Sequence record: OK254197.1
Origin: Escherichia phage PNJ1902
Length of the DNA stretch: 64,000 nt
Direction: 5' to 3' (one strand)
How positions within the stretch are numbered: the first letter of the stretch is position 1; each line of letters starts with the position of its first letter. Below the pieces are notes generated by a model. It saw only the letters and a list, made by a program, of their open reading frames with translations. It was not told the origin of the DNA and did no database searches. Below, one piece after another: positions 18,972 to 45,011 of this stretch. The position numbers and the translations under genes were made by a program.

Positions 18972-19022
18972 CAATATTTTACTATAAAGTTCTGTAACAT
19001 GATCTGAGTCAAAAAATTTTAT

Positions 19023-19163: not shown

Positions 19164-19192
19164 TTGCTTTTTACTGTATATATTGGTATAAT
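19164..19192 (+). promoter_or_regulatory. sigma70 promoter for phoH operon
   Basis: TTGCTT-17-TATAAT. Confidence 0.65.
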
Positions 19193-19256
19193 ATATTTGT
19201 AAGTTGATAAACAAGATCTTTTTGTTGATCCTCTGTTAGCGAAGTACACTATAGGA

Positions 19257-20018
19257 GTGTTATTTATGGGAAAAGCACGTCAAAAAAGAGAGAACCGCAA
19301 TGGTTCAAGAAAGCGTGGCAACAAATATGAGAACAACGTAATTCAGGCTGATTTTTCTAATGATTACGCTAATCCAGTTGCTAAATCCCTAGTAGGTAAA
19401 AACCGCGAGCAAAAATCATATATCAATATGATCAAGAACAACACAGTGACTGTGGGTATCGGTGAGCCGGGTACTGGTAAAACCTTTATTCCGTCCGTTC
19501 TTGCAGCTCAGGAACTCGTAGACATTCACTCAGATATTGAGCAAGTGATCCTCGTACGTCCTAATGAACCTCTAGGTAAGTCTCTTGGTATGCTTCCTGG
19601 TGATCTAGCGGAAAAGCTAGAGCCTTGGTTGGAACCAATAGCTGATGGTATGAAATGGGCCATCGGCGATCATGCATATAAGGGATATGTCGAACGTCAG
19701 AAAATTAAATTTTTGGCTATCGAACATGCTCGTGGCAGAACTTTCAACAACTCCTATGTAATTGTCGATGAAGCTCAGAATATTTCCGTTGAGGCAATGA
19801 TTTGTCTCCTAACTCGTGTAGGACAAGACTGCCGTTTAATTATCTGCGGAGATATAGCTCAGAAAGACATTAAAGGTGACTCAGGTCTAGCACTCCTTAT
19901 GGAAGTCTATGAAAAATACGAAAATGCCCCATTCTCAATGATCGAATTGATTGATAACGTTCGTTCTGCTGAGTCTAAAGCATTCTATGACATTTTTAAA
20001 GACATGGGGAAGGTGTAA
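19257..20018 (+). CDS. phoH: PhoH-like ATPase
   Basis: 253 aa; Walker A GEPGTGKT; Walker B VIVDEAQN. Confidence 0.8.
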   Translation: MLFMGKARQKRENRNGSRKRGNKYENNVIQADFSNDYANPVAKSLVGKNREQKSYINMIKNNTVTVGIGEPGTGKTFIPSVLAAQELVDIHSDIEQVILVRPNEPLGKSLGMLPGDLAEKLEPWLEPIADGMKWAIGDHAYKGYVERQKIKFLAIEHARGRTFNNSYVIVDEAQNISVEAMICLLTRVGQDCRLIICGDIAQKDIKGDSGLALLMEVYEKYENAPFSMIELIDNVRSAESKAFYDIFKDMGKV

Positions 20019-31722: not shown

Positions 31723-31751
31723 TTGCTAAATGCCTTTAAATTCTGTATAAT
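31723..31751 (+). promoter_or_regulatory. sigma70 promoter (T5 early type)
   Basis: TTGCTA-17-TATAAT; fires into ~800-bp ORF-free segment. Confidence 0.7.
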
Positions 31752-31973
31752 ATATTCATAAATTAGGGAACAGCGAGCCGATTACGCTGAGTGCAGAATC
31801 CCAACCGGAGCGCATTGAATAGAGTCGGTGGGTTAGTTGTAAAACTAGTACACAGGGGGCGGCAATCCCGGTTAGTGGCTAGAACGTGTAAAATGAGGCG
31901 TCTGAAACCTCTCCCCTAAACTCTTCTCTAATTTATAAATAGTGGGGTGTGGAAATCACTTATGTAGTAACAC

Positions 31974-32047
31974 TGCCGTCCTAGTATAATTGGTATTATC
32001 AAGCCGTAACTGGTGGAAGATGTAGGTTCGAATCCTACGGTCGGTAA
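31974..32047 (+). ncRNA. tRNA-like element (degenerate)
   Basis: GTAGGTTCGAATCCTAC T-arm and 6/7 bp acceptor pairing, tRNA-sized, but no clean D or anticodon arm. Confidence 0.25.
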
Positions 32048-32548
32048 GAACTGGATAACTGGTGCTTTTAATGTAAAAGCTTCCGAGGTTAGTTGCGCAC
32101 TGCCTAAACCACGCGGTAGTTGGTTCCAGACTAGCCAACCAGTCTGCTGAATAGTTTTATTACGATTTAACTATGTCCAGACTAAAGAAGAACTTTAGAA
32201 GGTATTCTAGGATAGTGAAGTTCTTTCTCCATATCGGAGTAGTTTTTCAAGCTATCCACAAAGTGGGAAATGCTGACATGAGAGATGTCACTAATGGTGC
32301 ACAATAGCACAGGTAATTCGCGATAATTCCTGTTGAGTAGCAGCAAAAGGCGGGAAGTCATGACCCCAAGCCTAACCGAGTCCTCAATATACCGCAGGAC
32401 ATAACCACTAAGTCACCCTGACTTAAACTGGAAAATAATAGACGTTACCGTATTTTGTCTTGAAATACTTAATGAGTGAGACTTATGACTCTCCCGGTAT
32501 CGTCTGTATTTTTAAGAGTTTTTACGAGAGTTCTTAAAAATACTTAAA

Positions 32549-32623
32549 CGGGGTGTAGTCTAAGGGAGAGGCAGGAGTCTTCTAAATTCCTTTATGCAGG
32601 TTCGAATCCTGTCACCTCGGCCA
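32549..32623 (+). tRNA. tRNA-Arg (anticodon UCU), tentative
   Basis: Hand fold: acceptor CGGGGTG/CACCTCG, anticodon stem GGAGT/ATTCC loop CTTCTAA, T-arm GCAGG-TTCGAAT-CCTGT, encoded CCA. Confidence 0.45.
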
Positions 32624-33605: not shown

Positions 33606-33630
33606 TAGTTACACGTAATCTTCGAACTAA

Positions 33631-33662
33631 GCCCGCGTTTTCTCCGAGAGCGCGGGCTTTTC
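33631..33662 (+). terminator. Intrinsic terminator
   Basis: GCCCGCG...CGCGGGC hairpin + TTTT. Confidence 0.7.
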
Positions 33663-35620: not shown

Positions 35621-36139
35621 ATGAATGTTGATGAGCTAACACAGCACCTCTTATCTAGAGGATTTGATACAGATAAATATCATTGCTGGTTAAGCCCGGA
35701 AGGGTGGCTAACAGTCCCATTGTATGACTTCTCTGGGATGTTGCGGGGCTATCAGACGTATAATCCTTCTGCTCCAAAAGGGCATGGTAAGTGCCCCTTT
35801 GAGGCTAAATATTTTACCTACTCCACTACACAGTGTGTATGGGGACTAGAAACTCTCAATGGAGATGAAAAAGTAGTATTGATTGCTGAATCTGTATTTA
35901 AGGCAGTTGCATTACATAATGCTGGTTATCCAGCCCTAGCAATGTTGGGTTCTACCCCAGGAAAAGCGTTATTAAAGCAACTGAAATTACTACCTTTTAA
36001 ATTGGTAGCTGTCGGGGATAATGATCCTGCGGGTGAAAAATTTGCTAGAAAATTGAACGGCTTTGTTTCTCCTGTAGATGTGGATGAGATGTCTACCGAA
36101 AACTTGAAAAATTTTCTTGCTATGAAGCTAAATTTCTAA
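35621..36139 (+). CDS. Toprim-domain protein
   Basis: 172 aa; conserved Glu (LIAES) and DxD (GDNDPAG). Confidence 0.5.
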   Translation: MNVDELTQHLLSRGFDTDKYHCWLSPEGWLTVPLYDFSGMLRGYQTYNPSAPKGHGKCPFEAKYFTYSTTQCVWGLETLNGDEKVVLIAESVFKAVALHNAGYPALAMLGSTPGKALLKQLKLLPFKLVAVGDNDPAGEKFARKLNGFVSPVDVDEMSTENLKNFLAMKLNF

Positions 36140-36160
36140 TATAATATATCTTATAAATTC

Positions 36161-36249
36161 GGAAGAATAGCATAACGGTATTGCAGCAGATTGCTAATCT
36201 GTCGGTTTGAAATATAGCCTTGTGGGTTCGATTCCCACTTCTTCCGCCA
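36161..36249 (+). tRNA. tRNA-Ser (anticodon GCU), class II
   Basis: Hand fold: acceptor GGAAGAA/TTCTTCC, loop TTGCTAA, long variable arm, T-arm GTGGG-TTCGATT-CCCAC, CCA encoded. Confidence 0.55.
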
Positions 36250-36255
36250 GATTTT

Positions 36256-36333
36256 GGTTCTCAAGCTCATATGGTATGAGCACCCGGCTCATAACCGGAA
36301 GGTACGTAGGTTCGAATCCTCGGGGAGCCACCA
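36256..36333 (+). tRNA. tRNA with CAU anticodon (Met/Ile2), tentative
   Basis: Acceptor GGTTCTC/GGGAGCC (2 GU), loop CTCATAA, TTCGAAT T-loop with weak 3-bp T-stem. Confidence 0.45.
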
Positions 36334-36351
36334 ATTAAATAGAGGTCACAA

Positions 36352-36540
36352 ATGGATCTATATATAGTTTATGTTGTGTTTATTCAAGATAGAGAATACC
36401 CGGATGAATATAAAAAAGGATATAGGCTAGCCAGAGCTACCTCTGAAGCCCAAGCTATGGATAAAGTGGCAGATTATATGATTACGGTAGAAAACGTACA
36501 CTATATAGACTACCTCGAAGCCTCAAAAGTAATTGACTAA
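36352..36540 (+). CDS. Hypothetical protein
   Basis: 62 aa ORF. Confidence 0.45.
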   Translation: MDLYIVYVVFIQDREYPDEYKKGYRLARATSEAQAMDKVADYMITVENVHYIDYLEASKVID

Positions 36541-36549
36541 GGAGACTAT

Positions 36550-36735
36550 ATGTCCAAGTTTCAAGAACTCAAGCAAGAGCTAGAAGAATGTGCCTGCCCT
36601 GAGTGTAGGGGAATTGGTGAAAGTTCTGATGCAGAAGCAGGAGATACTTTTTGCAATATCTGGGTTTGCCCAAATTGCAGTGGTACAGGTATTAATCCTA
36701 ACTGTGGTATTTCCCTAGATATTGAACGAGGATAA
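36550..36735 (+). CDS. Cys-rich small protein
   Basis: 61 aa; CxxC...CxxC pattern. Confidence 0.45.
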   Translation: MSKFQELKQELEECACPECRGIGESSDAEAGDTFCNIWVCPNCSGTGINPNCGISLDIERG

Positions 36736-36836
36736 TACCTATGAAACTAAAAGATTATTATATTGGTTGGTTTGTGGGACTAGTAGTAGGATTTTCACTA
36801 GGCTATAATATGTATCAACTAATAAACTGATTACAC

Positions 36837-36913
36837 GGGGGTGTAATCGAATTGGCATAGGTACTGGACTTAAAATTCAGGTTTTGTGGGTTCGAATCCC
36901 ACCACCCCTACCA
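36837..36913 (+). tRNA. tRNA with apparent UAA anticodon but class I (short variable arm) architecture
   Basis: Acceptor GGGGGTG/CACCCCT, anticodon stem CTGGA/TTCAG loop CTTAAAA, 5-nt variable loop, T-arm GTGGG-TTCGAAT-CCCAC, CCA encoded. Confidence 0.45.
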
Positions 36914-37088
36914 AATTAAGGAAATAAGATGTATAGACATCCACCTCCGCCAACACGTCGTTCTAGGGAAGTTATCCTCATGGAATTGACTAAAAACTTC
37001 AAGGCAACTCTTGAAGACAGAGATCTAGGCACGGATGAAGACATTGATTTTATTTGTAGACTATTAAAGATGAAACTGGAGAAAAAAC

Positions 37089-37295
37089 ATGGCTAATCCT
37101 GAAATTACAGCACAACGTTTCATGCTTAAAGGCATGATTGCTGAGGCAGGTATAACTCAAGAGGTTGCAGATTTTCATAAGCAATTTCTTGACATTATAA
37201 CTCTAGCTAAAGAGACTGGAGAAAAAGAGCATGGAGCGGCAATTATGGCTATATCTCTTATTAGTCTAGACTTGGCTGAAGAATCTGGAATTTAG
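37089..37295 (+). CDS. Hypothetical protein
   Basis: 68 aa ORF. Confidence 0.45.
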   Translation: MANPEITAQRFMLKGMIAEAGITQEVADFHKQFLDIITLAKETGEKEHGAAIMAISLISLDLAEESGI

Positions 37296-37325
37296 CTCCT
37301 CCAAACAGAATTTTTAAAAATGTAC

Positions 37326-37355
37326 TTGCCTTTTGCTTTAAATTTCTGATATAAT
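37326..37355 (+). promoter_or_regulatory. sigma70 promoter
   Basis: TTGCCT-18-TATAAT. Confidence 0.6.
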
Positions 37356-37385
37356 AGTTATATAAATTGATGAAGGAGTTAATGA

Positions 37386-37661
37386 ATGCAAAATCGTGTT
37401 ATAGCAGCTGGTATTGAAAGTGCAATCTGTAAATCCTGGGAAGGCTGGGAAGGTGAGATTGAATGGCTTTATTTCTACGATGTAGAACTTCTGCCGGAAA
37501 TTAAAGCTAAATGTATTGAAGCTGGCATGGCTCCAGATGCAAAAGCTGATATTGATATTTCAATGTCTGAACTTAAAGGTCGTGTAATTACTGTTAGTGA
37601 TGAGGGCGAAGAAGTTTTCGAACTTCCGTTCTCCTTAACTGTCGCTCCTAAGTTCGACTAA
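37386..37661 (+). CDS. Hypothetical protein
   Basis: 91 aa ORF with RBS AAGGAG. Confidence 0.5.
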   Translation: MQNRVIAAGIESAICKSWEGWEGEIEWLYFYDVELLPEIKAKCIEAGMAPDAKADIDISMSELKGRVITVSDEGEEVFELPFSLTVAPKFD

Positions 37662-37692
37662 CTAATACAGCACTGAGCAAGTTCTTTAAAAT

Positions 37693-37726
37693 TTGACTTG
37701 CTCAGTGCCTTAAAACTTGGTATAAT
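37693..37726 (+). promoter_or_regulatory. sigma70 promoter driving tRNA cluster
   Basis: TTGACT/TTGCTC-17-TATAAT. Confidence 0.65.
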
Positions 37727-37793
37727 AGTTATCTAATTTGGAAACATATTTAAAAGTGTTTAAATTAGAATTTTTTTGAATACTTCTAAATAT

Positions 37794-37881
37794 GGGGAAA
37801 TATTCTGTAAGTGGTAGCAGAGCTGACTGTAAATCAGTTGTCATTGCGACTCGGGTGGTTCGACTCCATCTTTCCCCACCA
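37794..37881 (+). tRNA. tRNA-Tyr (anticodon GUA), class II
   Basis: Acceptor GGGGAAA/TTTCCCC, loop CTGTAAA, ~15-nt variable arm, T-loop TTCGACT, CCA. Confidence 0.6.
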
Positions 37882-37887
37882 ATTTAA

Positions 37888-37964
37888 GTCCTGTTAGACA
37901 AACTGGTAAAGTCACTACCCTTTCAAGGTAGGATTTGCGGGTTCGATCCCCGCACAGGACGCCA
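37888..37964 (+). tRNA. tRNA-Glu (anticodon UUC)
   Basis: Acceptor GTCCTGT/ACAGGAC, anticodon stem CTACC/GGTAG loop CTTTCAA, T-arm GCGGG-TTCGATC-CCCGC, CCA. Confidence 0.65.
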
Positions 37965-37972
37965 ATTCCTGC

Positions 37973-38049
37973 ATTCCTAGAGTGTTACTGGACAGCATGT
38001 CGGTCTCCAAAACCGTACGGTCTAGGTTCGAGTCCTAGTAGGTTTGCCA
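37973..38049 (+). tRNA. tRNA-Trp (anticodon CCA), acceptor stem with two U-U mismatches
   Basis: Anticodon arm CGGTCTCCAAAACCG as in E. coli tRNA-Trp; T-arm CTAGG-TTCGAGT-CCTAG; acceptor ATTCCTA/TAGGTTT. Confidence 0.5.
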
Positions 38050-38055
38050 AAATTT

Positions 38056-38130
38056 GCACCTTTAGCTGAGATGGATTAGCGCTTGCCTGAAGAGCTTGAG
38101 AGGTTCGTTCGATACGAACAGGGTGCACCA
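38056..38130 (+). tRNA. tRNA-Phe (anticodon GAA), tentative
   Basis: Acceptor GCACCTT/AGGGTGC, loop CTGAAGA at canonical position, anticodon stem with two U-U mismatches, T-arm GTTCG-TTCGATA-CGAAC. Confidence 0.45.
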
Positions 38131-38147
38131 ATTTGAAGGAGCTGCTT

Positions 38148-38420
38148 ATGCATCCTGAAAACTTCTTTATTTACTGCGCGGATAAGTCGCTGAAACGTAG
38201 AATTAACAAAGTCTATCATTATCGTGCTAGTCAACAGCCTTATGTATACGCTTTTGACGGTGATCACATTCCATTAGAACAATTATCTTGTGATTACATG
38301 ATATTGAAGAACTTTGACGAGACAAAGATCTCAAGCGTTCACAATCGACAGAATCCATTAACGTGGAAATATAAGAAGAAAAAGAAAGGCATCAAATTCT
38401 TAAAAAATGTAGTTGCTTAG
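38148..38420 (+). CDS. Hypothetical protein
   Basis: ~90 aa from ATG 38148 with RBS AAGGAG (table start 38133 is TTG). Confidence 0.5.
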   Translation: MHPENFFIYCADKSLKRRINKVYHYRASQQPYVYAFDGDHIPLEQLSCDYMILKNFDETKISSVHNRQNPLTWKYKKKKKGIKFLKNVVA

Positions 38421-38441
38421 TTTCCAAAAGTTCTGTATAAT
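38413..38441 (+). promoter_or_regulatory. sigma70 promoter
   Basis: TTGCTT-17-TATAAT. Confidence 0.65.
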
Positions 38442-38489
38442 AATTACATAAATTGAACTGGAGAAGCAACATGATAGAATAAGATAAAT

Positions 38490-38565
38490 CGACCGTTGGC
38501 TGAATGGCTTAGGCGAAGGATTGCAAATCCTTTTTATGTGAGTTCAAATCTCATGCGGTCGTCCA
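38490..38565 (+). tRNA. tRNA-Cys (anticodon GCA)
   Basis: Acceptor CGACCGT/GCGGTCG, anticodon stem AAGGA/TCCTT loop TTGCAAA, T-loop TTCAAAT, CCA. Confidence 0.6.
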
Positions 38566-38717
38566 ATTTGCTGAAAGAATTGTTTTAACAATTCAGGCAC
38601 GCGTAGGAACACTGTCTCCGTAATTGAAAGATGAGGCACGGTTTGGAGAGGTATGCCGCTACACGCTACGGTGCTAACTCCGTCTAGGTGAAAATCCTAG
38701 TCAGCAATATAAATTTA

Positions 38718-38800
38718 GGGTCGTTAGCCAAGCGGTTTGGCGGTGGACTGTTAATCCATGTCGAAAGACAACGTAGGTTCGAATCCTACACGGCCCGCCA
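38718..38800 (+). tRNA. tRNA with class II architecture (13-nt variable arm, G73) but apparent GUU anticodon
   Basis: Acceptor GGGTCGT/ACGGCCC, 3-bp D stem, anticodon stem GTGGA/TCCAT loop CTGTTAA, variable hairpin GTC-GAAA-GAC, T-arm GTAGG-TTCGAAT-CCTAC. Confidence 0.4.
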
Positions 38801-38902
38801 AATTCTGTGTAGAGTTAAGTAAACCGGTAGCCAACCAGCTATCATTGCTGACATCGAATTCAGCCACAGATACCATTTTCATTAATAACTGAGGAAACAA
38901 GC

Positions 38903-39088
38903 ATGTCCAAGAATGTAATTGCGCAGCTAGAAGTTCATCGTGATAGCACTATCAACAATATTGAAGTTGAGAAGAAATACATCGAAGAACTTAAACATGA
39001 TATACTAGTAAGTCTTAATCGTCTTAATGTACGAAAAGAGTTTCTTAAGGAACTTAATGCAGCTATTGAAAAACTCAAAGCTGAGTAA
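38903..39088 (+). CDS. Hypothetical protein
   Basis: 61 aa ORF with RBS GAGGAAACAAGC. Confidence 0.45.
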   Translation: MSKNVIAQLEVHRDSTINNIEVEKKYIEELKHDILVSLNRLNVRKEFLKELNAAIEKLKAE

Positions 39089-39097
39089 ATGAATTAT

Positions 39098-39174
39098 GCG
39101 ACAGGGGCTGGCTTGGTAATGGTACTCCCCTGTCACGGGAGAGAATGTGGGTTCGAATCCCATCGGTCGCGCCA
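39098..39174 (+). tRNA. tRNA-Asp (anticodon GUC)
   Basis: Anticodon stem CTCCC/GGGAG loop CTGTCAC, T-arm GTGGG-TTCGAAT-CCCAT, CCA. Confidence 0.6.
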
Positions 39175-39200
39175 AATTAAACTAGCACGAGAAATATGCT

Positions 39201-39548
39201 ATGATTAATGCTAAAGAAGAGTTGTTACTTGCCCTAAAGAATACTAATTCTGAAGTTAAGTGTATTAAGATAGAATTCGGTTATTATGGAGACAAAGAAG
39301 TTTGGGTATTGCCCGTAGGTTATACAGAAAAAGATATTGAAGATTTTCTAAATAATCTAGACTTTAAATATGACTCGGGTTTCGGTGGACAATTGCTTTA
39401 TGGTAACGTATGGTTTACTGATGGAACTTGGTTAGAACGTGGTGAATATGATGGTTCTGAATGGTGGGAGTATAAGACTACACCAGCAATCCCTGAGGAA
39501 TGCCGAACAATTAATGGTGAAGTAGATAATACTTTACGGTTAAACTAA
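39201..39548 (+). CDS. Hypothetical protein
   Basis: 115 aa ORF. Confidence 0.55.
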   Translation: MINAKEELLLALKNTNSEVKCIKIEFGYYGDKEVWVLPVGYTEKDIEDFLNNLDFKYDSGFGGQLLYGNVWFTDGTWLERGEYDGSEWWEYKTTPAIPEECRTINGEVDNTLRLN

Positions 39549-39553
39549 TAAAA

Positions 39554-39660
39554 TTTCAGTGCAGAACACGGAGCTAGCAATTCGGAAGTGCTGACTCATG
39601 ATAAGCTGCCTATGTACTTGCGAAGCGGTCGTGTCCAAGACTCGGACTCTTGCACTGAAA
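39554..39660 (+). ncRNA. Hairpin-closed structured element (candidate small RNA)
   Basis: 10-bp terminal inverted repeat TTTCAGTGCA/TGCACTGAAA enclosing ~87 nt, no ORF. Confidence 0.3.
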
Positions 39661-39670
39661 ACAATCAAAC

Positions 39671-39791
39671 ATTCTAGCGTGGTTGATGGGGAAACCAGCT
39701 TGGCTAGGGCAGAAGCTCGTTCGATTCGAGTGAAAGAATGGTTCTCGTAAGTCCGCACAAGTGATAACAGGTTCGAGTCCTGTCTAGAATG
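39671..39791 (+). ncRNA. tRNA-like cloverleaf with ~48-nt insertion in the anticodon loop
   Basis: Perfect 7-bp acceptor ATTCTAG/CTAGAAT, D stem TGGT/ACCA, anticodon stem GCTTG/CAAGT enclosing 55 nt, T-arm ACAGG-TTCGAGT-CCTGT. Confidence 0.4.
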
Positions 39792-39806
39792 ACACTATAA
39801 AGTTTA

Positions 39807-39920
39807 CTTATTATGTAGGTTCCGATAGATCGGCGGGTCTATTCTGGCATTTAAGAGAGGTCTCGCAAACTTCTTTGTCAGCCGTGGGGTTGGTAGCCTC
39901 CAGGTGGCCTACACAATAAG
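39807..39920 (+). ncRNA. Hairpin-closed structured element (candidate small RNA)
   Basis: 13-bp inverted repeat CTTATTATGTAGG/CCTACACAATAAG (12/13 match) enclosing ~88 nt with internal CCGATAGATCGG hairpin. Confidence 0.3.
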
Positions 39921-39940
39921 TAAATTTATTAAAAATTCAT

Positions 39941-39969
39941 TTGCTATTCTGCTTAATTCTCTGTATAAT
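39941..39969 (+). promoter_or_regulatory. sigma70 promoter (T5 early type)
   Basis: TTGCTA-17-TATAAT. Confidence 0.7.
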
Positions 39970-40001
39970 ATATTTTATAAAGTGAAGAGAAGGAAAGCAA
40001 A

Positions 40002-40160
40002 ATGAAACACAAGATAGCTCAAGTTTTTATGGCATTATGGTGTATGCCAGTAGCTATAACAGCATTTAATCTAGATACTTTTACTATAGAAGAAAAATGT
40101 ATCGGGTTAGTTAGCGGCTTTAGTATGCTGGGCTTATCCTTGTTGTGGTTGAAGAAATAA
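40002..40160 (+). CDS. Small hydrophobic protein
   Basis: 52 aa ORF with RBS AGGAAAG, hydrophobic core; below table cutoff. Confidence 0.4.
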   Translation: MKHKIAQVFMALWCMPVAITAFNLDTFTIEEKCIGLVSGFSMLGLSLLWLKK

Positions 40161-40164
40161 TATT

Positions 40165-40242
40165 CTCCGTGTAGCTCAGTTTGGCCAGAGCGTTTCGTTT
40201 GGGGCGATAGGGTCGGGGGTTCAAATCCTCCCACGGAGACCA
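40165..40242 (+). tRNA. tRNA-Pro (anticodon UGG)
   Basis: Acceptor CTCCGTG/CACGGAG, D arm GCTC...GAGC, loop TTTGGGG, T-loop TTCAAAT, CCA. Confidence 0.55.
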
Positions 40243-40248
40243 AACAAT

Positions 40249-40326
40249 TGCGGGTTAGATCTCTGGTAGAGATCGCTAGTCTCATAAGCTAGAAAGAGGT
40301 AGGTTCGATTCCTGCACCCGCTTCCA
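40249..40326 (+). tRNA. tRNA with CAU anticodon and unpaired 1:72 (initiator-like), tentative
   Basis: Acceptor TGCGGGT/ACCCGCT with U1-U72 mismatch, D stem GATC/GATC, anticodon stem CTAGT/GCTAG loop CTCATAA, CCA. Confidence 0.5.
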
Positions 40327-40346
40327 TTTTAATAGAGGATTTCGAA

Positions 40347-40514
40347 ATGAAAGTATTTCGATTAGTAGTAAGTGACAAACGTTTAGGTAAGAATACATCA
40401 AAATCCTTAATCGCTCATTACGGTAAAAATTGGGATGAAGTAATGGCAGAGTTTAATACTAATCACCCTTACTTGAAAGTTCACTCTATTAAAGAAGTAT
40501 ACAATGGTTACTAA
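40347..40514 (+). CDS. Small hypothetical protein
   Basis: 55 aa ORF with RBS GAGGA; below table cutoff. Confidence 0.35.
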   Translation: MKVFRLVVSDKRLGKNTSKSLIAHYGKNWDEVMAEFNTNHPYLKVHSIKEVYNGY

Positions 40515-40515
40515 T

Positions 40516-40594
40516 AGATCGCTAGCTCAATAGGTTTAGTAGCATCCGACTTTTAATCGGAAGGTTCTGGGTTCGAGTCCCAGGCGATCTACCA
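40516..40594 (+). tRNA. tRNA-Lys (anticodon UUU)
   Basis: Acceptor AGATCGC/GCGATCT, anticodon stem TCCGA/TCGGA loop CTTTTAA, T-arm CTGGG-TTCGAGT-CCCAG, CCA. Confidence 0.6.
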
Positions 40595-40612
40595 ATTTCA
40601 AGAAAAACGCAG

Positions 40613-40641
40613 TTGCTTGATGCTTAATTTCTTGTTATAAT
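40613..40641 (+). promoter_or_regulatory. sigma70 promoter
   Basis: TTGCTT-17-TATAAT; followed by ~230 nt ORF-free transcribed spacer. Confidence 0.65.
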
Positions 40642-40879
40642 ATTTATATAAATTGATGAGGAGAGATCCTCATCATAGTTCACTAAGGTATTAGCTCGAC
40701 CTAGGACTGGCTGCCAAAAAGCACGATCCCTTCTACTTGGGAGAAGTTCTAGATTAGTCCACTAGATTCAGCGGCAACTGAATAGTGTATCGGGTTTGCG
40801 AGATGACGCAGTTCCTTCCGCTCGAAGCGAAGGTGCTGTAGTTACGCCGAGCTAATAGCCTTAGTAAACTAAAGATTTT

Positions 40880-40954
40880 GGGCGGTTAGTTTATCTGGGA
40901 AAATACCTGACTTGCACTCAGGAGTGAGGAGTTCGACTCTCCTACTGTCCACCA
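40880..40954 (+). tRNA. tRNA-Ala (anticodon UGC)
   Basis: Anticodon stem CCTGA/TCAGG loop CTTGCAC, T-arm AGGAG-TTCGACT-CTCCT, CCA. Confidence 0.6.
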
Positions 40955-40972
40955 AATTAAAGGGTATGTAGT

Positions 40973-41473
40973 ATGAAGGTAGCTAAAAATGGGAGAAAAG
41001 ATAACTTAAATGAGTTAGAAATATTCCTCCACAATAACAAACTAGACGTAACCGCTAGTAATTACATGCAAATAGCTCTATGGTATAATGGGTATATAGT
41101 TAGGAAGGCCAATCCTAGTAAGGATAAGAAGTCAAATACATACCAAAAGAGACTAGAGCATAGCTATCAAAGATCCCTAAGAGTAGTACAGCTTTATTGT
41201 TATATCAATAATATAAATAATAAGCTGGGATATATTTATATAATATCTAATCCAGCTTTTCCAGGCTGGTTTAAAGTAGGAGCAGCCAAAGATGCTGAGA
41301 CTAGATTAAATACCTATCAAACATACTCCCCTTTTCGGGACTATGTATTAGAGTATTATAAACTAGTAGATAATTATGAACTCAAAGAAAAAGAAATCCT
41401 AAGTTCTTTTTCATCTAGAAATAATGAGTGGGTTCATGCTCCACTTGAAGAAATAATTGCTTGCGTGGCGTAA
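40973..41473 (+). CDS. T5orf172-domain (GIY-YIG-like) protein
   Basis: 166 aa; GYIYIISNP...KVGAA...RLNTYQT motif; 3' end overlaps tRNA-Leu start by ~15 nt. Confidence 0.55.
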   Translation: MKVAKNGRKDNLNELEIFLHNNKLDVTASNYMQIALWYNGYIVRKANPSKDKKSNTYQKRLEHSYQRSLRVVQLYCYINNINNKLGYIYIISNPAFPGWFKVGAAKDAETRLNTYQTYSPFRDYVLEYYKLVDNYELKEKEILSSFSSRNNEWVHAPLEEIIACVA

Positions 41474-41541
41474 TTGGTAGACGCGCGATCCTTAGGAGTT
41501 CGTGTTAATTCGTGTGGGTTCGAGTCCCTCCGCAAGCACCA
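41459..41541 (+). tRNA. tRNA-Leu (anticodon UAG), class II
   Basis: Perfect acceptor GCTTGCG/CGCAAGC, Leu-type D arm, loop CTTAGGA, long variable arm, A73, CCA. Confidence 0.55.
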
Positions 41542-41653
41542 AATTTGATGGTCAGAGTAAATTAAACCTACTATCTCGGTTGAGCTGTTTTAATGGGTTC
41601 GAATCCCAGCGAGGCGTAACTGCCTGGTGTGATAGGGGCATCATCTTATTATT

Positions 41654-41744
41654 GGAAGAGCAAATCGAATTGGCGACGAAAACCGCTTGGAAAGTGGCTG
41701 ACTGGTAAAACGGCTTGAGAGTTCAAATCTCTCCTCTTCCGCCA
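41654..41744 (+). tRNA. tRNA-Ser (anticodon GGA), class II
   Basis: Acceptor GGAAGAG/CTCTTCC, loop TTGGAAA, ~18-nt variable arm, T-arm GAGAG-TTCAAAT-CTCTC, G73, CCA. Confidence 0.5.
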
Positions 41745-41757
41745 AACAATTTATATG

Positions 41758-41851
41758 GTAGGTCAATCCAACGGCTGGCGCTGGACTCCGACTTGAAATC
41801 GGTTGATCGTAGTGATACGGTGTAAGGGTTCGATCCCCTTACCTACCTCCA
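41758..41851 (+). tRNA. tRNA-Ser (anticodon UGA), class II
   Basis: Perfect acceptor GGTAGGT/ACCTACC, loop CTTGAAA, long variable arm, T-loop TTCGATC, CCA. Confidence 0.5.
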
Positions 41852-41856
41852 AATCT

Positions 41857-41988
41857 TGAAGTATGCCGGAATTGGTAGACGGGGCTGCCTAAAAGGTTTA
41901 TAGAGAACATCCACTCTCTACAACATACCTCATAAAGCGGCTGAGATAAATGGTCTATCTCGTGAAGGTTCAAGTCCTTCTGCTTCTT
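41857..41988 (+). ncRNA. Class II tRNA-like cloverleaf with ~41-nt insertion in the anticodon loop
   Basis: Acceptor TGAAGTA/TGCTTCT (6/7, U1-U72), U8-G9, Leu-type D arm, anticodon stem GCTGC/GCGGC enclosing 48 nt, variable hairpin GAGATA...TATCTC, T-arm GAAGG-TTCAAGT-CCTTC; no encoded CCA. Confidence 0.4.
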
Positions 41989-42102
41989 GATACATCTATG
42001 GCTCAAAGTGTAACGGTGCTATTTGATGCTCTTAGTAAGACTTCCCCGACATGCGTTCGGGAGTAAGCTGCTAAGGCTAGGGTAGAAGAGTTTCGGAGAG
42101 CC

Positions 42103-42222
42103 GCCACAATTGAAAATTCGTACTCGTCTTGAGCTGCGTGCAATAGGAGATAACTTGATTAGTATTCTAGAACATGCTAATTGAGGAAGGTTTCGCTAAC
42201 CCTGCGAGTTTTCAATTGTGGC
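42103..42222 (+). ncRNA. Hairpin-closed structured element abutting tRNA-His
   Basis: 14-bp perfect inverted repeat GCCACAATTGAAAA/TTTTCAATTGTGGC enclosing ~92 nt; right arm overlaps tRNA-His 5' end. Confidence 0.3.
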
Positions 42223-42294
42223 TATATCATAATTGGTTAATGATCCTGATTGTGAATCAGGCCTATGTGGATTCGAATTCCACTAGCCACCCCA
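42218..42294 (+). tRNA. tRNA-His (anticodon GUG)
   Basis: Perfect acceptor GTGGCTA/TAGCCAC, anticodon stem CCTGA/TCAGG loop TTGTGAA, T-arm GTGGA-TTCGAAT-TCCAC, C73, CCA. Confidence 0.6.
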
Positions 42295-42319
42295 AATTAA
42301 CTTAAATAGGAAATAAAAT

Positions 42320-42514
42320 ATGGCTGATTTCTGCAAACAATGCTCCATTGATATGTGGGGCAGAGATACTGGTGATCTTTCTGGTTTGATTACAGAAGCT
42401 GAAGTTAAAGAAGGCTACGGTGCTGTTGTGATTTGCGAGGGATGCGGAGTTATTCGAGTAGATCATGAAGGCAAACGTTTGGAAGAATCTGAGCCAACAA
42501 CAATTTTTCCGTAG
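42320..42514 (+). CDS. Cys-rich small protein
   Basis: 64 aa; CxxC...CxxC; RBS GGAAATAAAATATG. Confidence 0.5.
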   Translation: MADFCKQCSIDMWGRDTGDLSGLITEAEVKEGYGAVVICEGCGVIRVDHEGKRLEESEPTTIFP

Positions 42515-42526
42515 AATAAAAATTAT

Positions 42527-42602
42527 TGGGATGTAGATCAATTGGCAGATCGTCGGCCTCTGACTCCGAAGGTTCCACGTTCGATCCGTGGCATCCCAGC
42601 CA
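42527..42602 (+). tRNA. tRNA-Gln (anticodon CUG)
   Basis: Perfect acceptor TGGGATG/CATCCCA, D stem GATC/GATC, loop CTCTGAC, T-arm CCACG-TTCGATC-CGTGG, CCA. Confidence 0.6.
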
Positions 42603-42608
42603 AATAAT

Positions 42609-42684
42609 TGGAGAGTAGTGTAACGGTTAGCACAACGGCCTTTGACTCCGTTAATGGTAGGTTCGATTCCTCCTTCTCCAGCCA
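42609..42684 (+). tRNA. tRNA-Gln (anticodon UUG)
   Basis: Acceptor TGGAGAG/TTCTCCA, anticodon stem ACGGC/TCCGT loop CTTTGAC, T-loop TTCGATT, CCA. Confidence 0.55.
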
Positions 42685-42692
42685 AACAATAA

Positions 42693-42768
42693 GCGGTTAA
42701 GCACACGGGTTGTGCCGCAGGCCTTCCAAGCCTCGCTGAGTAGGGTTCGATTCCCTCTAGCCGCTCCA
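42693..42768 (+). tRNA. tRNA-Gly (anticodon UCC)
   Basis: Anticodon arm GGCCTTCCAAGCC as in E. coli tRNA-Gly(UCC), 3' end GCTCCA. Confidence 0.6.
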
Positions 42769-42784
42769 ACTTTAAGGAAACGTT

Positions 42785-43039
42785 ATGCACGTTTTTGAAT
42801 TTCGTAATAAAAGTACCGATAAACGAGTTATTGTTATTGGGGAAACATACCGAGCATACGAACAAACTGACGGCTCTGTTATCCTGAATGATGAGAAAGG
42901 AGGTTTTAGCTTTTATCCAGAAGAACCTTATGAAGAGTTTCGAAAACAATTTAACCTAGACTGGAGAAAGCATTTAAACACTGTTGCTTCATCTGTAATA
43001 CTGCCAACTACCAGTACTGAGTCCTCTAATGGCCGATAA
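42785..43039 (+). CDS. Hypothetical protein
   Basis: 84 aa ORF with RBS AAGGAAACG. Confidence 0.5.
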   Translation: MHVFEFRNKSTDKRVIVIGETYRAYEQTDGSVILNDEKGGFSFYPEEPYEEFRKQFNLDWRKHLNTVASSVILPTTSTESSNGR

Positions 43040-43193
43040 CCTAAAAGTAAAGATCGATAAACAAAAGAAACGTGTAGAAGTAGAGATTGGTGAAGAACGT
43101 GTAGCCTTCACCTTTGAATTTCTACAACAAATGGCAATGACAGTTATGACTGACAAGTCTCCTATTATTGAAAAAGAAATCCCGTTGGAATAA
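43029..43193 (+). CDS. Small hypothetical protein
   Basis: 54 aa ORF overlapping previous stop; below table cutoff. Confidence 0.35.
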   Translation: MADNLKVKIDKQKKRVEVEIGEERVAFTFEFLQQMAMTVMTDKSPIIEKEIPLE

Positions 43194-43201
43194 CGGGTTC
43201 T

Positions 43202-43288
43202 GCTGGGTTGGCAGAATGGTTGAATGCACCTGATTTGTAATCAGGAGGAGTAATCCCGTTGCAGGTTCGAATCCTGTGCCCAGCACCA
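43202..43288 (+). tRNA. tRNA with class II architecture (15-nt variable arm, A73) but apparent UGU anticodon
   Basis: Acceptor GCTGGGT/GCCCAGC, 3-bp D stem with 11-nt loop, anticodon stem CCTGA/TCAGG loop TTTGTAA, T-arm GCAGG-TTCGAAT-CCTGT, CCA. Confidence 0.4.
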
Positions 43289-43302
43289 ATTTAAGGATTA
43301 GT

Positions 43303-43470
43303 ATGTTTAAACTCCTAGTAGTTATCTGGTATAGCCAATCAAACAGAGCTAATACCTCTCACGTTATAGACTTTAATACTAAAAATGAAGCTGAAGAAGC
43401 ATATGCTAATTTAATACAACGTAATAAAGAATCTCGTAGTATAGTTTATGAAGTGACTAAACTTTATTAA
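43303..43470 (+). CDS. Hypothetical protein
   Basis: 55 aa from ATG 43303 with RBS AAGGA. Confidence 0.4.
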   Translation: MFKLLVVIWYSQSNRANTSHVIDFNTKNEAEEAYANLIQRNKESRSIVYEVTKLY

Positions 43471-43478
43471 AAATTCAT

Positions 43479-43507
43479 TTGCCTTCTCTCTTATTTCTTG
43501 TTATAAT
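43479..43507 (+). promoter_or_regulatory. sigma70 promoter (T5 early type)
   Basis: TTGCCT-17-TATAAT + ATAAATTAATGAGAGG leader. Confidence 0.65.
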
Positions 43508-43537
43508 ATTTATATAAATTAATGAGAGGGAAACCAA

Positions 43538-43831
43538 ATGAAACGTTATCTTTCTGTTATGTTCCAAACTGGTGGTCAACGCTATACTTATGAATTTCCT
43601 AGCTCTTGGAAGATCAAAGAAGGTGATCAAGTAGTAGTGTTAACACCGCGCGAGGGTTTCAAGGTAGTAACGGTTAAGCAAGTATTTCCAAAAGATCGTG
43701 AACCAGCTAAAGGCATTCGCTATAAGATGATTCATGGTGTAGTTCGTCAAGTACCACGAGCGGAAGTCGAAATCAAAGTAGATAAAGATGGTAAACTTAA
43801 ATATACCTCTTGCTTAGACGAGTTGCTATAA
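43538..43831 (+). CDS. Hypothetical protein
   Basis: 97 aa ORF. Confidence 0.55.
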   Translation: MKRYLSVMFQTGGQRYTYEFPSSWKIKEGDQVVVLTPREGFKVVTVKQVFPKDREPAKGIRYKMIHGVVRQVPRAEVEIKVDKDGKLKYTSCLDELL

Positions 43832-44037
43832 TGAGAATTACTTTCACAGAAAAGATTATGGGTAATGGTGTTATGATCATTACCGCATGGGATGGTAATC
43901 AGTGGTGTAGTGTTTCAGGTATTAAGCCTGAAGAACAAACACTAGAAAATATCTCAAAGATTAAGCGAAGAATGGCAGAACGTGCACGACTTCCAGGTGC
44001 GCCTAGAAATGGTAAACGTTCTGCAATTAAATATTAA
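43831..44037 (+). CDS. Hypothetical protein
   Basis: 68 aa from ATG 43831 (TAATG overlap). Confidence 0.45.
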   Translation: MRITFTEKIMGNGVMIITAWDGNQWCSVSGIKPEEQTLENISKIKRRMAERARLPGAPRNGKRSAIKY

Positions 44038-44038
44038 T

Positions 44039-44115
44039 GCTTCGGTAGCTTAGCGATCTAAAGCACTCGGCTGATAACCGAGAGATCGGGGGTTTAAATC
44101 CCTCCCGGAGTACCA
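44039..44115 (+). tRNA. tRNA-Ile (anticodon GAU)
   Basis: Acceptor GCTTCGG/CCGGAGT, anticodon stem CTCGG/CCGAG loop CTGATAA, unusual T-loop TTTAAAT, CCA. Confidence 0.55.
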
Positions 44116-44211
44116 AATTTAGGAATTAAGACTATGCGTCCAGGAAAGTTTAAAAAAGCTAATTGGTCTAAAGAGTATAAAGAATACTTACTTAGTCTAG
44201 TAAAACATAAC

Positions 44212-44287
44212 AGTTAGTTGGCAGAGTGGTTATGCACCTCCTTCATACGGAGCGACTACAGTGGTTCAAATCCACTACTAACTACCA
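44212..44287 (+). tRNA. tRNA with CAU anticodon (Met or Ile2)
   Basis: Perfect acceptor AGTTAGT/ACTAACT, loop TTCATAC, T-arm AGTGG-TTCAAAT-CCACT, CCA. Confidence 0.55.
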
Positions 44288-44324
44288 TTAAAATAGCTAG
44301 AGATAGCTAAATTTAGGAGCAGCT

Positions 44325-44519
44325 ATGTTAACAATTAAAATAATGTCAGCCAAGAATGGTGAACATATCCATACGGGCAAAAGCGTAAGCTTTAATCCTA
44401 GAAATAAGAGATTGGCTATAGTTGGAGTAGATCAAGCCATCTTTTTAAAAGAAGATGAAGTAGCATACGTCATGAACCAAACTGGTAAGACAGTTTCCGT
44501 ATACTATGGAAAAGTATAA
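44325..44519 (+). CDS. Hypothetical protein
   Basis: 64 aa ORF with RBS AGGAGC. Confidence 0.5.
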   Translation: MLTIKIMSAKNGEHIHTGKSVSFNPRNKRLAIVGVDQAIFLKEDEVAYVMNQTGKTVSVYYGKV

Positions 44520-44561
44520 AGAATAAAGAGCTGAGCCAAATTCTAACATCGGGGAGATCTA

Positions 44562-44930: not shown

Positions 44931-45011
44931 TGGGGTTTGGATACGATTTCTACCAGCTACGCAAGGTAGTCGAGCAAACTCCATTTATCTCCCAAGTTTT
45001 AGGAGAAATGT

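Follow-up and report, generated by a model that had tools for sequence, protein, structure and literature searches.

RNAX of Escherichia phage PNJ1902, a probable multi-domain structured RNA with a tRNA-like cap in T5-like phages

Introduction

What does a strong phage promoter make when it fires into some 800 nucleotides that hold no gene? The question is raised by positions 31752-32548 of a 64,000-nt stretch of Escherichia phage PNJ1902 (record OK254197.1; hereafter the window), a gene-free region with a T5-type early promoter on one side and tRNA-Arg(UCU) on the other. We propose that this segment is probably the PNJ1902 version of RNAX, a non-coding, multi-domain structured RNA of about 790 nt; what we say below of its function is a guess held with low confidence.

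Large and intricately folded RNAs are rare among bacteria and their phages, and the function of most of them is unknown. GOLLD and ROOL are phage RNAs of more than 500 nt that are highly structured, non-coding and encoded beside tRNA islands, with tRNAs sometimes lying inside GOLLD itself (PMC12286853). The 3′ part of GOLLD is conserved and its 5′ part variable; both RNAs form multimers built by loop-loop contacts, and their function is unknown (PMC12286853). They come mostly from prophages and metagenomes, and are difficult to manipulate.

Results

The locus and its counterpart in T5

PNJ1902 is a T5-like phage (Tequintavirus). In the T5 GenBank record (AY543070), a misc_RNA named rnaX is placed at 40848-41566, noted as 'stable RNA with unknown functions' and listed as a single 719-nt species running from promoter P 16-17 to tRNA-Arg. 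T5 40848-41566 and the window region are 93.1% identical over 84% of the query, and the gene order is the same in both phages: a YqeY-like gene, the promoter, RNAX, tRNA-Arg(UCU) and an SPFH gene. Judged by alignment, 31752-32548 is the homologue of rnaX ('RNAX'). The region is also 99.8% identical in Salmonella phages Th1 and PHB06 and in Escherichia phage fp01. Although the T5 and window elements are the same gene, the window copy includes a 5′ module of about 150 nt not present in T5, and lacks an 87-nt insert, flanked by a duplication, that T5 carries. Neither structure nor family nor function is given in the T5 record, and literature searches on RNAX, T5 stable RNA and T5 tRNA-like RNA yielded no paper specific to it. 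The transcript is already catalogued in T5, its 'stable' label rests on the GenBank note, and what is new here is the comparative picture.

The promoter, at 31723-31751 on the plus strand (-35 at 31723-31728, -10 at 31746-31751), reads TTGCTA-17-TATAAT, agrees with the consensus at 10 of 12 positions and is the top-scoring site of the region. Promoter-like sites are not enriched in the region as a class (seven observed, 8.0 expected), so the case is carried by homology and conservation rather than by the scan: the site aligns with T5 'P 16-17' and is kept in all relatives examined. The strong promoter of the original prediction is thereby upheld. Transcription of RNAX probably starts near 31758. 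The segment does end in a tRNA-Arg gene, as had been noticed; it lies at 32549-32623 (plus strand, ARAGORN call tct) and is co-transcribed with RNAX. A scan of the region found no plus-strand terminator between the promoter and 33629; a terminator lies at 33629-33659, and a single promoter serves RNAX, tRNA-Arg and the Band_7 (SPFH) gene. A cut by RNase P at the 5′ end of tRNA-Arg would set the 3′ end of RNAX.

Open reading frames are not conserved

The claim that no ORF of 60 aa or more follows the promoter holds for the plus strand within 31752-32548, while the minus strand carries a TTG-start ORF of exactly 60 aa at 31956-32138. Five small ORFs are candidates, three on the plus strand (42, 45 and 44 aa) and two on the minus strand (60 and 59 aa), and some genome records annotate ORFs inside the RNAX region as hypothetical proteins. 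All five candidates carry in-frame stops, frameshifts, truncations or missing starts in relatives that keep the nucleotide sequence. The 44-aa ORF at 32173, which had been singled out as a possible peptide, is cut to 13 codons by a 1-nt deletion in T5 and interrupted by stops in SB13, YZU-L1 and a Klebsiella phage, and the suggestion is not supported. A clear protein encoded by homologous regions had been named as the finding that would count against a non-coding segment; no relative has a conserved ORF over the conserved core. Substitutions in RNAX track base-pairing, not codons.

Compensatory changes point to a folded RNA

We tested covariation on an alignment of 16 sequences, with 36 pairs and 500 shuffles. 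The proposed partners are paired in 88.8% of cells, against 33-42% when partners are slid. Both sides have changed in 22 of the 36 pairs, a count that none of the 500 shuffles matched, and these compensatory changes support the folding. None of the 500 shuffles reached the observed values for four of five measures, and four did so for the fifth. G-U pairs are frequent (for instance, UG in nine of the 16 sequences at two stalk pairs), which assigns the structure to the plus-strand RNA. The case for structure rests on this covariation because thermodynamic stability is unexceptional: relative to shuffled sequence, folding energy gives z = -0.82 over the region in full and -0.37 over its 5′ part alone. 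An initial all-against-all covariation scan was too noisy for long-range pairs, and from it local helices alone were used. No helix linking the 5′ and 3′ ends of RNAX was found, and its domains may therefore act separately.

Domains of RNAX

All features below are on the plus strand. Domain 1 (31758-31936) is an optional 5′ module closed by helix P1, which pairs 31758-31770 with 31924-31936. Inside it, a hairpin (31771-31775 with 31785-31789) is joined by a pseudoknot between its loop, 31777-31783, and 31822-31829. In T5 and AKFV33 the domain has shrunk to the bare P1 hairpin, and atrejo, CitS1 and KFSSM carry a homing-endonuclease ORF in its stead. Some relatives have such ORFs, either at the site of the 5′ module or behind the 3′ hairpin.

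Domain 2 (31942-32112) is a conserved four-way junction closed by GUGG at 31942-31945 and CCAC at 32109-32112. This closing helix covaries, GUGG:CCAC becoming AUGG:CCAU in YZU-L1, ACGG:CCGU in My1 and AUGGG:CCCAU in PM135; it was tallied by hand because MAFFT failed on short versus long versions of the third branch. Three branches leave the junction: a stalk, P3 (a hairpin at 32064-32080) and a third hairpin that pairs 32087-32092 with 32100-32104. The stalk (31955-32063) pairs 31955-31968 with 32050-32063 around a conserved G-G mismatch and bears the tRNA-like element at its tip. Its eight tested pairs are 99.2% paired, several with five to seven both-side changes, and RNAalifold independently recovers the stalk and extends it further. 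A T-loop-like hairpin, GUG-UCGAAAU-CAC at 31947-31959, was rejected, since covariation puts those bases in the stalk.

The central region (32113-32347) is a mosaic of hairpin modules reshuffled between relatives. One of its hairpins, 32119-32123 with 32135-32139, covaries from GUUGG:CCAAC to GUUGA:UCAAC; we do not claim an H-type pseudoknot at 32119-32146, of which the first stem alone is kept in relatives. Beyond it lies a hairpin with a palindromic loop (described below), followed by a segment at 32380-32431 in which a covarying hairpin (32380-32384 with 32396-32400) precedes a conserved AACCAC motif (32403-32408) and a hairpin of AGUCA and UGACU (32411-32415 with 32419-32423); CCA at 32405-32407 pairs with UGG at 32429-32431.

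The 3′ three-way junction (32440-32505) is closed by 32440-32450 with 32495-32505 and holds two hairpins (32450-32455 with 32463-32468, and 32474-32477 with 32488-32491) with a conserved unpaired UUAAU between them. A terminal hairpin of at least 13 bp (32506-32543), highly conserved, marks the 3′ end of the conserved RNA and stops 5 nt upstream of tRNA-Arg in the PNJ1902 window. The 13-bp stem that had been noticed at 32505-32545 is real: 32506-32518 with 32531-32543 form 12 Watson-Crick pairs and one G-U pair, which both the MFE fold and RNAalifold recover and extend. The layout of junction plus terminal hairpin is predicted independently in divergent lineages whose sequences differ.

A tRNA-like element without a working anticodon arm

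The degenerate tRNA-like element reported at 31974-32047 is confirmed in essentials. The Rfam tRNA model (RF00005) matches 31975-32046 on the plus strand with 35.5 bits, where the gathering score is 29, skipping the anticodon arm and leaving 18 nt unaligned. Like a tRNA, the element has an acceptor stem, a D arm with GG and a T arm (GGUUCGAAUCC), all three of them conserved. It differs from a tRNA in its anticodon arm, which has 3 bp and a 6-nt loop rather than a 5-bp stem and a 7-nt loop, in mismatches in the acceptor and D stems (a U-U mismatch in the acceptor) and in its lack of an encoded CCA: an invariant AAGA follows the 3′ strand of the acceptor, whereas tRNA-Arg encodes CCA. ARAGORN does not call the element in the window, and in relatives it either makes no call or assigns an 'anticodon' that varies from phage to phage (SeC tca, Ser cga, Ser act). 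The stalk persists where its tip has been exchanged: GSW6 has a mini version, and PM135 an ordinary hairpin. Read from this covariation, the element is the tip of a covarying stalk in a larger fold, and not a decaying stand-alone tRNA gene.

A similar architecture is found in the bacterial Y RNA YrlA, where a tRNA-like domain sits at the end of a long stem built from its flanks. The YrlA mimic likewise has T and D arms and no working anticodon arm. RNAX differs in being many times larger, in having no recognised Ro/Rsr-binding helix and in giving no Rfam match to the Y-RNA families.

A palindromic loop that does not vary

A hairpin at 32348-32373 (plus strand) carries the palindrome GUCAUGAC at 32357-32364 in its loop, above an inner stem (32352-32354 with 32364-32366) and an outer stem that covaries (32348-32351 with 32370-32373). 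Every one of the 45 distinct sequences holds the loop core AGUCAUG, and 44 of them read AGUCAUGA. Within the window, GTCATGAC is found once only; by chance, about one hexamer in 64 is a 6-nt palindrome. Because the loop never varies, its self-pairing lies beyond the reach of covariation.

Spread among phages

RNAX is found in hundreds of Demerecviridae genomes, with lengths from about 650 to 1340 nt, and nearly every T5-like genome retains it. Matching phage records numbered 580 with the window as query, 527 with the Klebsiella version and 431 with the Pectobacterium version. Its carriers include phages of Escherichia, Salmonella, Klebsiella, Yersinia, Erwinia (KEY), Pectobacterium (My1) and Proteus (PM135). 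Between phages of Escherichia, Pectobacterium and Proteus, blocks of sequence stay almost unchanged. Some phages do without the 5′ module or the tRNA-like tip, which are thus dispensable there. Compared across these genomes, RNAX is one conserved multi-domain RNA family of T5-like phages, assembled from conserved and swappable modules. The original view of a structured leader or precursor is supported in part, as far as it concerns a transcribed and structured non-coding RNA up to tRNA-Arg; the RNA is more than a leader.

We found no sequence paralogue elsewhere in the window and no RNAX in contigs of other phage families with an SPFH homologue. Complete E. coli genomes gave no match at BLAST sensitivity, so that, at this sensitivity, RNAX is not a mimic of a host RNA. 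The pattern GGAGTCATGACC-N(15-45)-AACCAC proved too unspecific for a scan of bacterial genomes; among the matches listed, blastn of 112 loci shows no similarity to RNAX. A metagenome scan with the 3′ hairpin pattern gave 72 loci, of which eight were RNAX, all of them close relatives, with no distant new members. A scan of viral contigs for the 5′ module, with a pattern that was too narrow, gave four loci.

Comparison with known RNA families

Rfam searches at permissive thresholds over the region, the surrounding 16 kb and four relatives gave tRNA matches only, weak sRNA and miRNA matches being put down to chance. The GOLLD and ROOL models matched neither the 901-nt region (E up to 10) nor the four relatives (E up to 0.1). 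RNAX nonetheless resembles these RNAs in location, in size class and in its variable 5′ and conserved 3′ layout, and it too has an embedded tRNA-like element and a conserved palindromic loop. It has the genomic context of GOLLD, being phage-encoded, longer than 500 nt, adjoined by a tRNA cluster and provided with a tRNA-like element. The absence of an Rfam match makes this an analogy of kind only. RNAX further differs in that we found no long-range helix to hold the entire molecule together and in that its hosts are enterobacterial T5-like phages. Multimers are known for GOLLD and ROOL; in RNAX the palindrome GUCAUGAC is the only hint of them.

The T5 tRNA cluster has seven other annotated small stable RNAs. 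T5 RNAI, RNAIII, RNA1, RNA2 and RNA3 are, like RNAX, co-transcribed with phage tRNAs and stable, and some are tRNA-like, but they measure 70-170 nt against the 650-1340 nt of the multi-domain RNAX. The species 1 and 2 RNAs of phage T4 are further small stable RNAs of phage tRNA clusters. A tmRNA was rejected, with no ARAGORN or Rfam call in the window or relatives, as was a group I intron, with no Rfam match and no interrupted gene, the element lying between a promoter and an intact tRNA. Apparent resemblances to a td-intron segment and, in the larger variants ('AGUCCGG'), to RNase P RNA had no Rfam support and were dropped.

Discussion

Host RNA polymerase can start at the conserved T5-type early promoter, and no terminator stands between it and tRNA-Arg. 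With compensatory changes in support, the RNA folds as separately closed domains: an optional 5′ pseudoknot domain, the four-way junction, the mosaic middle and a 3′ domain that takes in the palindromic-loop hairpin, the three-way junction and the terminal hairpin. Going by what is established for tRNAs, RNase P would free RNAX by its cut at the start of tRNA-Arg, and the terminal hairpin would shield the 3′ end so made. Such shielding would explain why the T5 annotators called the RNA 'stable'. Lacking a usable anticodon arm and a CCA, the tRNA-like cap cannot decode, and it probably keeps the elbow formed by D-loop and T-loop. The cap would most likely serve as a handle for factors that recognise the elbow, such as RNase P and proteins that modify or bind tRNAs, or else as a structural cap. 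The tRNAs of T5 are targets of host defence nucleases (PMC13056530), and with low confidence we suggest that RNAX might be an RNA scaffold or decoy in a conflict over tRNAs between T5-like phages and the bacteria they infect. Self-association through the palindromic loop may be part of this, by analogy with GOLLD and ROOL at their tRNA clusters. Carried further, RNAX could be a third, unrelated family of giant tRNA-cluster phage RNAs beside GOLLD and ROOL, its monomers joined through the conserved palindromic loop and its cap, or elbow-docking modules, engaging tRNAs or tRNA-handling enzymes during infection; this extended proposal is quite unlikely as it stands.

The locus might instead encode a poly-precursor that RNase P, Z, E or III cuts into several independent small stable RNAs, with the tRNA-like element as a punctuation mark. 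Every domain has its own local closing helix, modules are shuffled, lost and swapped among phages, and the mosaic middle agrees no less with a set of independent modules than with a single molecule. The small stable RNAs in the same T5 cluster provide precedents, the acceptor/T-arm stack with a U at -1 would suit RNase P, and RNase III might cut the long AU-rich terminal hairpin. However, the T5 annotators listed RNAX as one 719-nt species, a single helix encloses the whole 170-nt junction domain, and the flanks of the tRNA-like element pair over at least 12 covarying bp, which would hold the pieces together even after excision. We consider such a precursor unlikely. It is highly improbable that the structure serves only the expression of tRNA-Arg and the SPFH/Band-7 gene, by controlling or stabilising it. 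Sharing one promoter, up to the terminator at 33629-33659, is what such a cis-acting leader would need, but RNAX is conserved even where other ORFs part it from tRNA-Arg or the SPFH gene (GSW6, YZU-L1, KFSSM, My1, phiR2-01 and Klebsiella phages), excision of tRNA-Arg would uncouple leader and mRNA, and 650-1340 nt of covarying structure far exceed the needs of known leaders.

Folded primer RNAs are known, such as ColE1 RNA II, as are the R-loop origins of phage T4, and a strong promoter firing into a long, structured, ORF-free region might recall a replication origin with its priming transcript. Yet the locus has no GC-skew turning point (the window minimum lies near 19-20 kb), many G-U pairs are specific to the plus strand, and the transcript continues into tRNA and mRNA and is annotated in T5 as a stable RNA, all of which makes a DNA-level element extremely unlikely. 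Equally hard to credit is non-functional debris, left by the decay of tRNA genes and by recombination where a tRNA cluster evolves fast. The tRNA-derived element, the coming and going of modules and the insertion of homing endonucleases nearby would fit such debris, but helices are maintained by compensatory changes across three subfamilies, blocks are nearly unchanged and almost every T5-like genome has kept the RNA. Small peptides, such as that of the 44-aa ORF at 32173, have next to no probability, for although the short ORFs exist and some are annotated, every one is broken in relatives and substitutions follow base-pairing.

A multi-domain structured RNA thus remains our preferred reading of RNAX, and its setting is favourable for experiment. 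Its promoter belongs to one of the strongest classes in E. coli, and for T5, a model phage, there are standard genetics, host mutants and numerous characterised defence systems that target tRNAs. Natural variants that have no 5′ module, a hairpin for the cap or a shuffled middle offer ready comparisons of structure and function. If RNAX were indeed a third family, the role of giant phage RNAs would become directly testable in tractable T5 and its relatives. For annotation, the short 'hypothetical proteins' that many genome records place inside the region can be taken as spurious with near certainty, and none of the 'tRNA-OTHER', 'tRNA-Sec' and 'tRNA-Ser' calls within RNAX is a decoding tRNA.

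A homologue of the T5 stable RNA RNAX

The 961 bases around the ORF-free segment at 31752-32548 are 99.8% identical to the corresponding sequence of Salmonella phages Th1 and PHB06 and Escherichia phage fp01. High-identity matches to these bases occur in 441 phage records, and those that are well annotated all belong to Tequintavirus or Epseptimavirus (Demerecviridae, T5-like phages). The window carries a cluster of 21 tRNA genes (ARAGORN), as T5 likewise carries a tRNA cluster. At exactly the same locus, running from promoter P 16-17 to tRNA-Arg, the T5 record (GenBank AY543070) annotates a 719-nt misc_RNA, 'rnaX', labelled 'stable RNA with unknown functions'. The segment and T5 RNAX represent one and the same gene. 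Because of that annotation the transcript was already catalogued; it is not itself new, having been annotated two decades ago. A full-text literature search found no paper dealing with RNAX, and the searchable literature yielded nothing on its structure, family or role.

The T5 record lists seven other stable RNAs of unknown function within the tRNA cluster (RNAI, RNAIII, RNA1, RNA2H, RNAIV, RNA2 and RNA3), located between tRNA genes. Their window equivalents lie at about 36000-45000 (T5 equivalents in the retrieved sequence L082), and the ORF-free gaps of the window that are homologous to these sites may hold more conserved structured RNAs. Four further loci in the window are unreported or differently reported by ARAGORN: 36256-36330 matches the Rfam tRNA model at 40.3 bits, while 37794-37877, 41757-41847 and 42692-42765 match the tRNA-Sec model below threshold. 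T5 has tRNA-Ile2, Ser and Gly annotated at the corresponding places, and all four are probably further phage tRNAs or tRNA-like RNAs.

Transcription and gene neighbourhood

Every element listed in the original prediction is present in the window. The promoter at 31723-31751 (TTGCTA-17-TATAAT) agrees with the consensus at 10 of 12 positions and is the best site in the region. Shuffled sequence contains at least as many promoter-like sites overall (8.0, against 7 here), so the case for this promoter rests on homology and conservation: it aligns with T5 promoter P 16-17, and neither its -10 box nor its start region varies among relatives. Directly after the segment, at 32549, ARAGORN places the start of tRNA-Arg(tct), as had been proposed. 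No terminator-like site precedes this tRNA on the + strand. The first lies past the next gene, 3' of the SPFH gene, where a strong hairpin of 14 pairs (8 G-C) spans 33629-33659. T5 has an annotated efficient bidirectional terminator at this position, adjoining a major DNA nick site.

The gene upstream of the RNA gives a weak, sub-threshold hit to YqeY (25.4 bits; cut-off 27), a protein similar to the tRNA-binding tail of GatB. Because Klebsiella phages lack this neighbour, it does not point to a constant protein partner. Elsewhere in the window, cumulative GC skew reaches its minimum at about 19000-20000, at the switch of skew sign, which probably reflects a change of gene orientation.

Coding potential

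The segment does lack any + strand ORF of at least 60 aa; a TTG ORF on its minus strand just reaches that length, at 60 aa. Five candidate ORFs were translated and sought in 19 relatives: + strand frames of 42, 45 and 44 aa, and - strand frames of 60 and 59 aa. All five are interrupted by stops, shortened or left without a start in relatives that otherwise conserve the nucleotide sequence. The 44-aa ORF put forward in the original prediction is shortened in T5 by a 1-nt deletion. On this comparative evidence, the region reads as non-coding. Many public records call strings of 30-65-aa 'hypothetical proteins' inside the RNA (e.g., 1620-2534 of L080 and 1667-1804 of L003, both retrieved relatives), or place 'tRNA-OTHER', 'tRNA-Sec', 'tRNA-Ser' or 'tRNA-Pro' features there; these calls are very likely annotation artefacts.

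A four-way junction with a tRNA-like cap

The predicted degenerate tRNA-like element is recognised by the Rfam tRNA model at 31975-32046 (35.5 bits; gathering score 29). In that match 18 nt at the anticodon arm stay unaligned; ARAGORN makes no tRNA call for the element. We tested covariation on a 16-sequence alignment of 31938-32096. The model tested pairs 31960-31968 with 32050-32058 around the tRNA-like element and includes the tRNA-like arms and a hairpin, P3, at 32064-32080. Standard pairs occupied 88.8% of cells, compared with 33-42% when partners were slid by 1-3 columns, and 22 of the 36 tested pairs had changes on both sides. For four of five measures the observed value was reached by none of 500 shuffles; for the fifth, the count of further pair types, it was reached by 4 of 500. 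RNAalifold independently predicted the same stalk and extended it to 31955 paired with 32063, with individual pairs showing 5-7 double changes. The covarying stalk therefore makes the tRNA-like element the tip of a stalk of at least 12 bp, not a free-standing gene.

Within this cap, covariation is seen in the T arm and the acceptor stem, and the D-loop GG and the T-loop are conserved. The anticodon arm has 3 bp and a 6-nt loop, no CCA follows the element, and the 'anticodon' assigned by ARAGORN differs in each relative or is missing. GSW6-type phages have a miniature cap, and Proteus phage PM135 has a plain hairpin in its place on the same stalk. The junction is closed by GUGG (31942-45) pairing with CCAC (32109-12), replaced by AUGG:CCAU in YZU-L1, ACGG:CCGU in My1 and AUGGG:CCCAU in PM135. 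The closing helix of the third branch is also kept while its sequences vary (GGCAG:CUGCC, GACAG:CUGUC, GCUG:CAGC, GCUA:UAGC, AACA:UGUU, UGGC:GCCA). Together, the stalk, hairpin P3, third branch and closure make up a predicted four-way junction, conserved as far as Proteus phages.

The 5' module and 3' domain

The 5' module is enclosed by a helix of 31758-70 with 31924-36. It contains a CAGCG/CGCUG hairpin (CAGCA/UGCUG in My1 and PM135) whose loop, GCCGAUU, pairs with downstream GAGUCGGU; the equivalent pairings are GCUGACU with GAAUCAGU in KEY and GCAGACU with GAAUCUGU in My1 and PM135. In the 3' domain, the loop of the hairpin at 32352-66 holds the palindrome GUCAUGAC, an 8-mer that occurs once in the 64-kb window and whose core, AGUCAUG, is present in 45 of 45 distinct sequences. 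A further hairpin (32380-84 with 32396-400) shows 3-4 pair types at each position. A three-way junction and then a long terminal hairpin are predicted independently in divergent versions from Tequintavirus, Epseptimavirus, Yersinia, Klebsiella, Erwinia and Pectobacterium phages, despite differing sequences. The long stem in the original prediction is this terminal hairpin (32506-32518 with 32531-32543), and it ends the conserved region even where ORFs intervene before tRNA-Arg (GSW6, My1, phiR2-01 and Klebsiella phages).

Many of the maintained pairs are G-U, so the structure belongs to the + strand RNA, not to duplex DNA. On the other side, the energy predicted for the fold does not stand out (z = -0.82 for the whole region, -0.37 for the 5' part), and no helix joining the two ends of the whole RNA was found, with tests of limited rigour for long-range pairs.

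A modular family in T5-like phages

Homologous ORF-free regions lie 3' of the same promoter in Epseptimaviruses (GSW6, bastian, SB13, EscoHU1, atrejo, CitS1, YZU-L1, KFSSM), Yersinia phage phiR2-01, Klebsiella Sugarland-like phages, Erwinia phage KEY, Pectobacterium phage My1 (another subfamily) and Proteus phage PM135 (another genus, with a different motif order). As a query, the window version matched 580 phage records, the Klebsiella version 527 and the Pectobacterium version 431. The length of the element between the -10 box and the 3' hairpin is 649-651 nt in the AKFV33 type, 732 nt in T5, 797 nt in the window, about 955, 1045 and 1216 nt in other relatives, and 1258-1338 nt in Klebsiella phages.

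Swappable parts alternate with blocks conserved in most lineages. The 150-nt 5' module (31771-31920) occurs at this single locus in 318 records; T5 and AKFV33 lack it and retain just its closing hairpin. A homing-endonuclease-type ORF takes its place in atrejo, CitS1 and KFSSM (L086 759-1238, L085 758-1240 and L087 1017-1499), and in GSW6, YZU-L1, KFSSM and My1 such ORFs sit downstream of the 3' hairpin, ahead of tRNA-Arg (loci in this set include L044 2047-2556, L084 1733-2242 and L078 3038-3583). This makes the RNA's borders hot spots where mobile genes insert. The middle (32113-32347 and equivalents) is built of recurring hairpin modules whose order and combination differ by phage, and alignments of this mosaic are unreliable. 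A short motif, GUGGGAA or GUGGGAC, is repeated beside several of its hairpins. An 87-nt insert in T5 (L002 3060-3146) has a copy of the AGTCACCTTGAC hairpin and AAACTGGAA on either side, a local duplication whose copies are separated by new sequence. In PM135 the palindromic-loop hairpin precedes the junction domain (L081 6690-7400), and a second T5-type promoter with about 280 nt of ORF-free sequence lies between tRNA-Arg and tRNA-Tyr (L081 7960-8265).

Rfam searches of the region and its relatives returned tRNA and no other family. No paralogue was found elsewhere in the 64-kb window, nor any match in the E. coli genomes searched or in contigs of other phage families carrying the neighbouring SPFH gene; searches beyond T5-like phages used exact patterns, which would miss distant relatives. 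The 3' hairpin pattern was matched in 72 metagenome contigs (L211-L282). The 64 without other RNAX similarity, several of them gut-sample contigs of about 100 kb, are most likely chance matches in AT-rich genomes.

Possible roles of RNAX

The nearest in kind to RNAX are GOLLD and ROOL, large ornate phage-encoded RNAs near tRNA islands, both of unknown function; tRNAs are sometimes embedded in GOLLD, whose 3' part is conserved and whose 5' part varies (PMC12286853). RNAX matches neither Rfam model, and we therefore class it as a separate family within the large structured RNAs of phages.

Four features of the locus are established: the promoter is conserved and of strong type, no terminator lies ahead of the tRNA, the conservation is non-coding, and the multi-domain fold covaries. 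We consider it probable that they describe one functional structured RNA. The main rival, a transcript cut into several independent small RNAs, seems unlikely, and any specific activity of RNAX deserves much less weight than the existence of one functional RNA. For such an RNA, standard tRNA biology suggests that RNase P cleavage at the 5' end of tRNA-Arg would set the 3' end just past the terminal hairpin, which would in turn protect it. The conserved palindromic loop looks like a loop-loop homodimer contact, a hint rather than evidence. Since the cap retains a tRNA elbow and cannot decode, our preferred reading is of a handle or mimic presented to elbow-binding factors. A role as a tRNA-related scaffold or decoy is plausible, because T5-like phages are attacked by tRNA-cleaving defences (PMC13056530).
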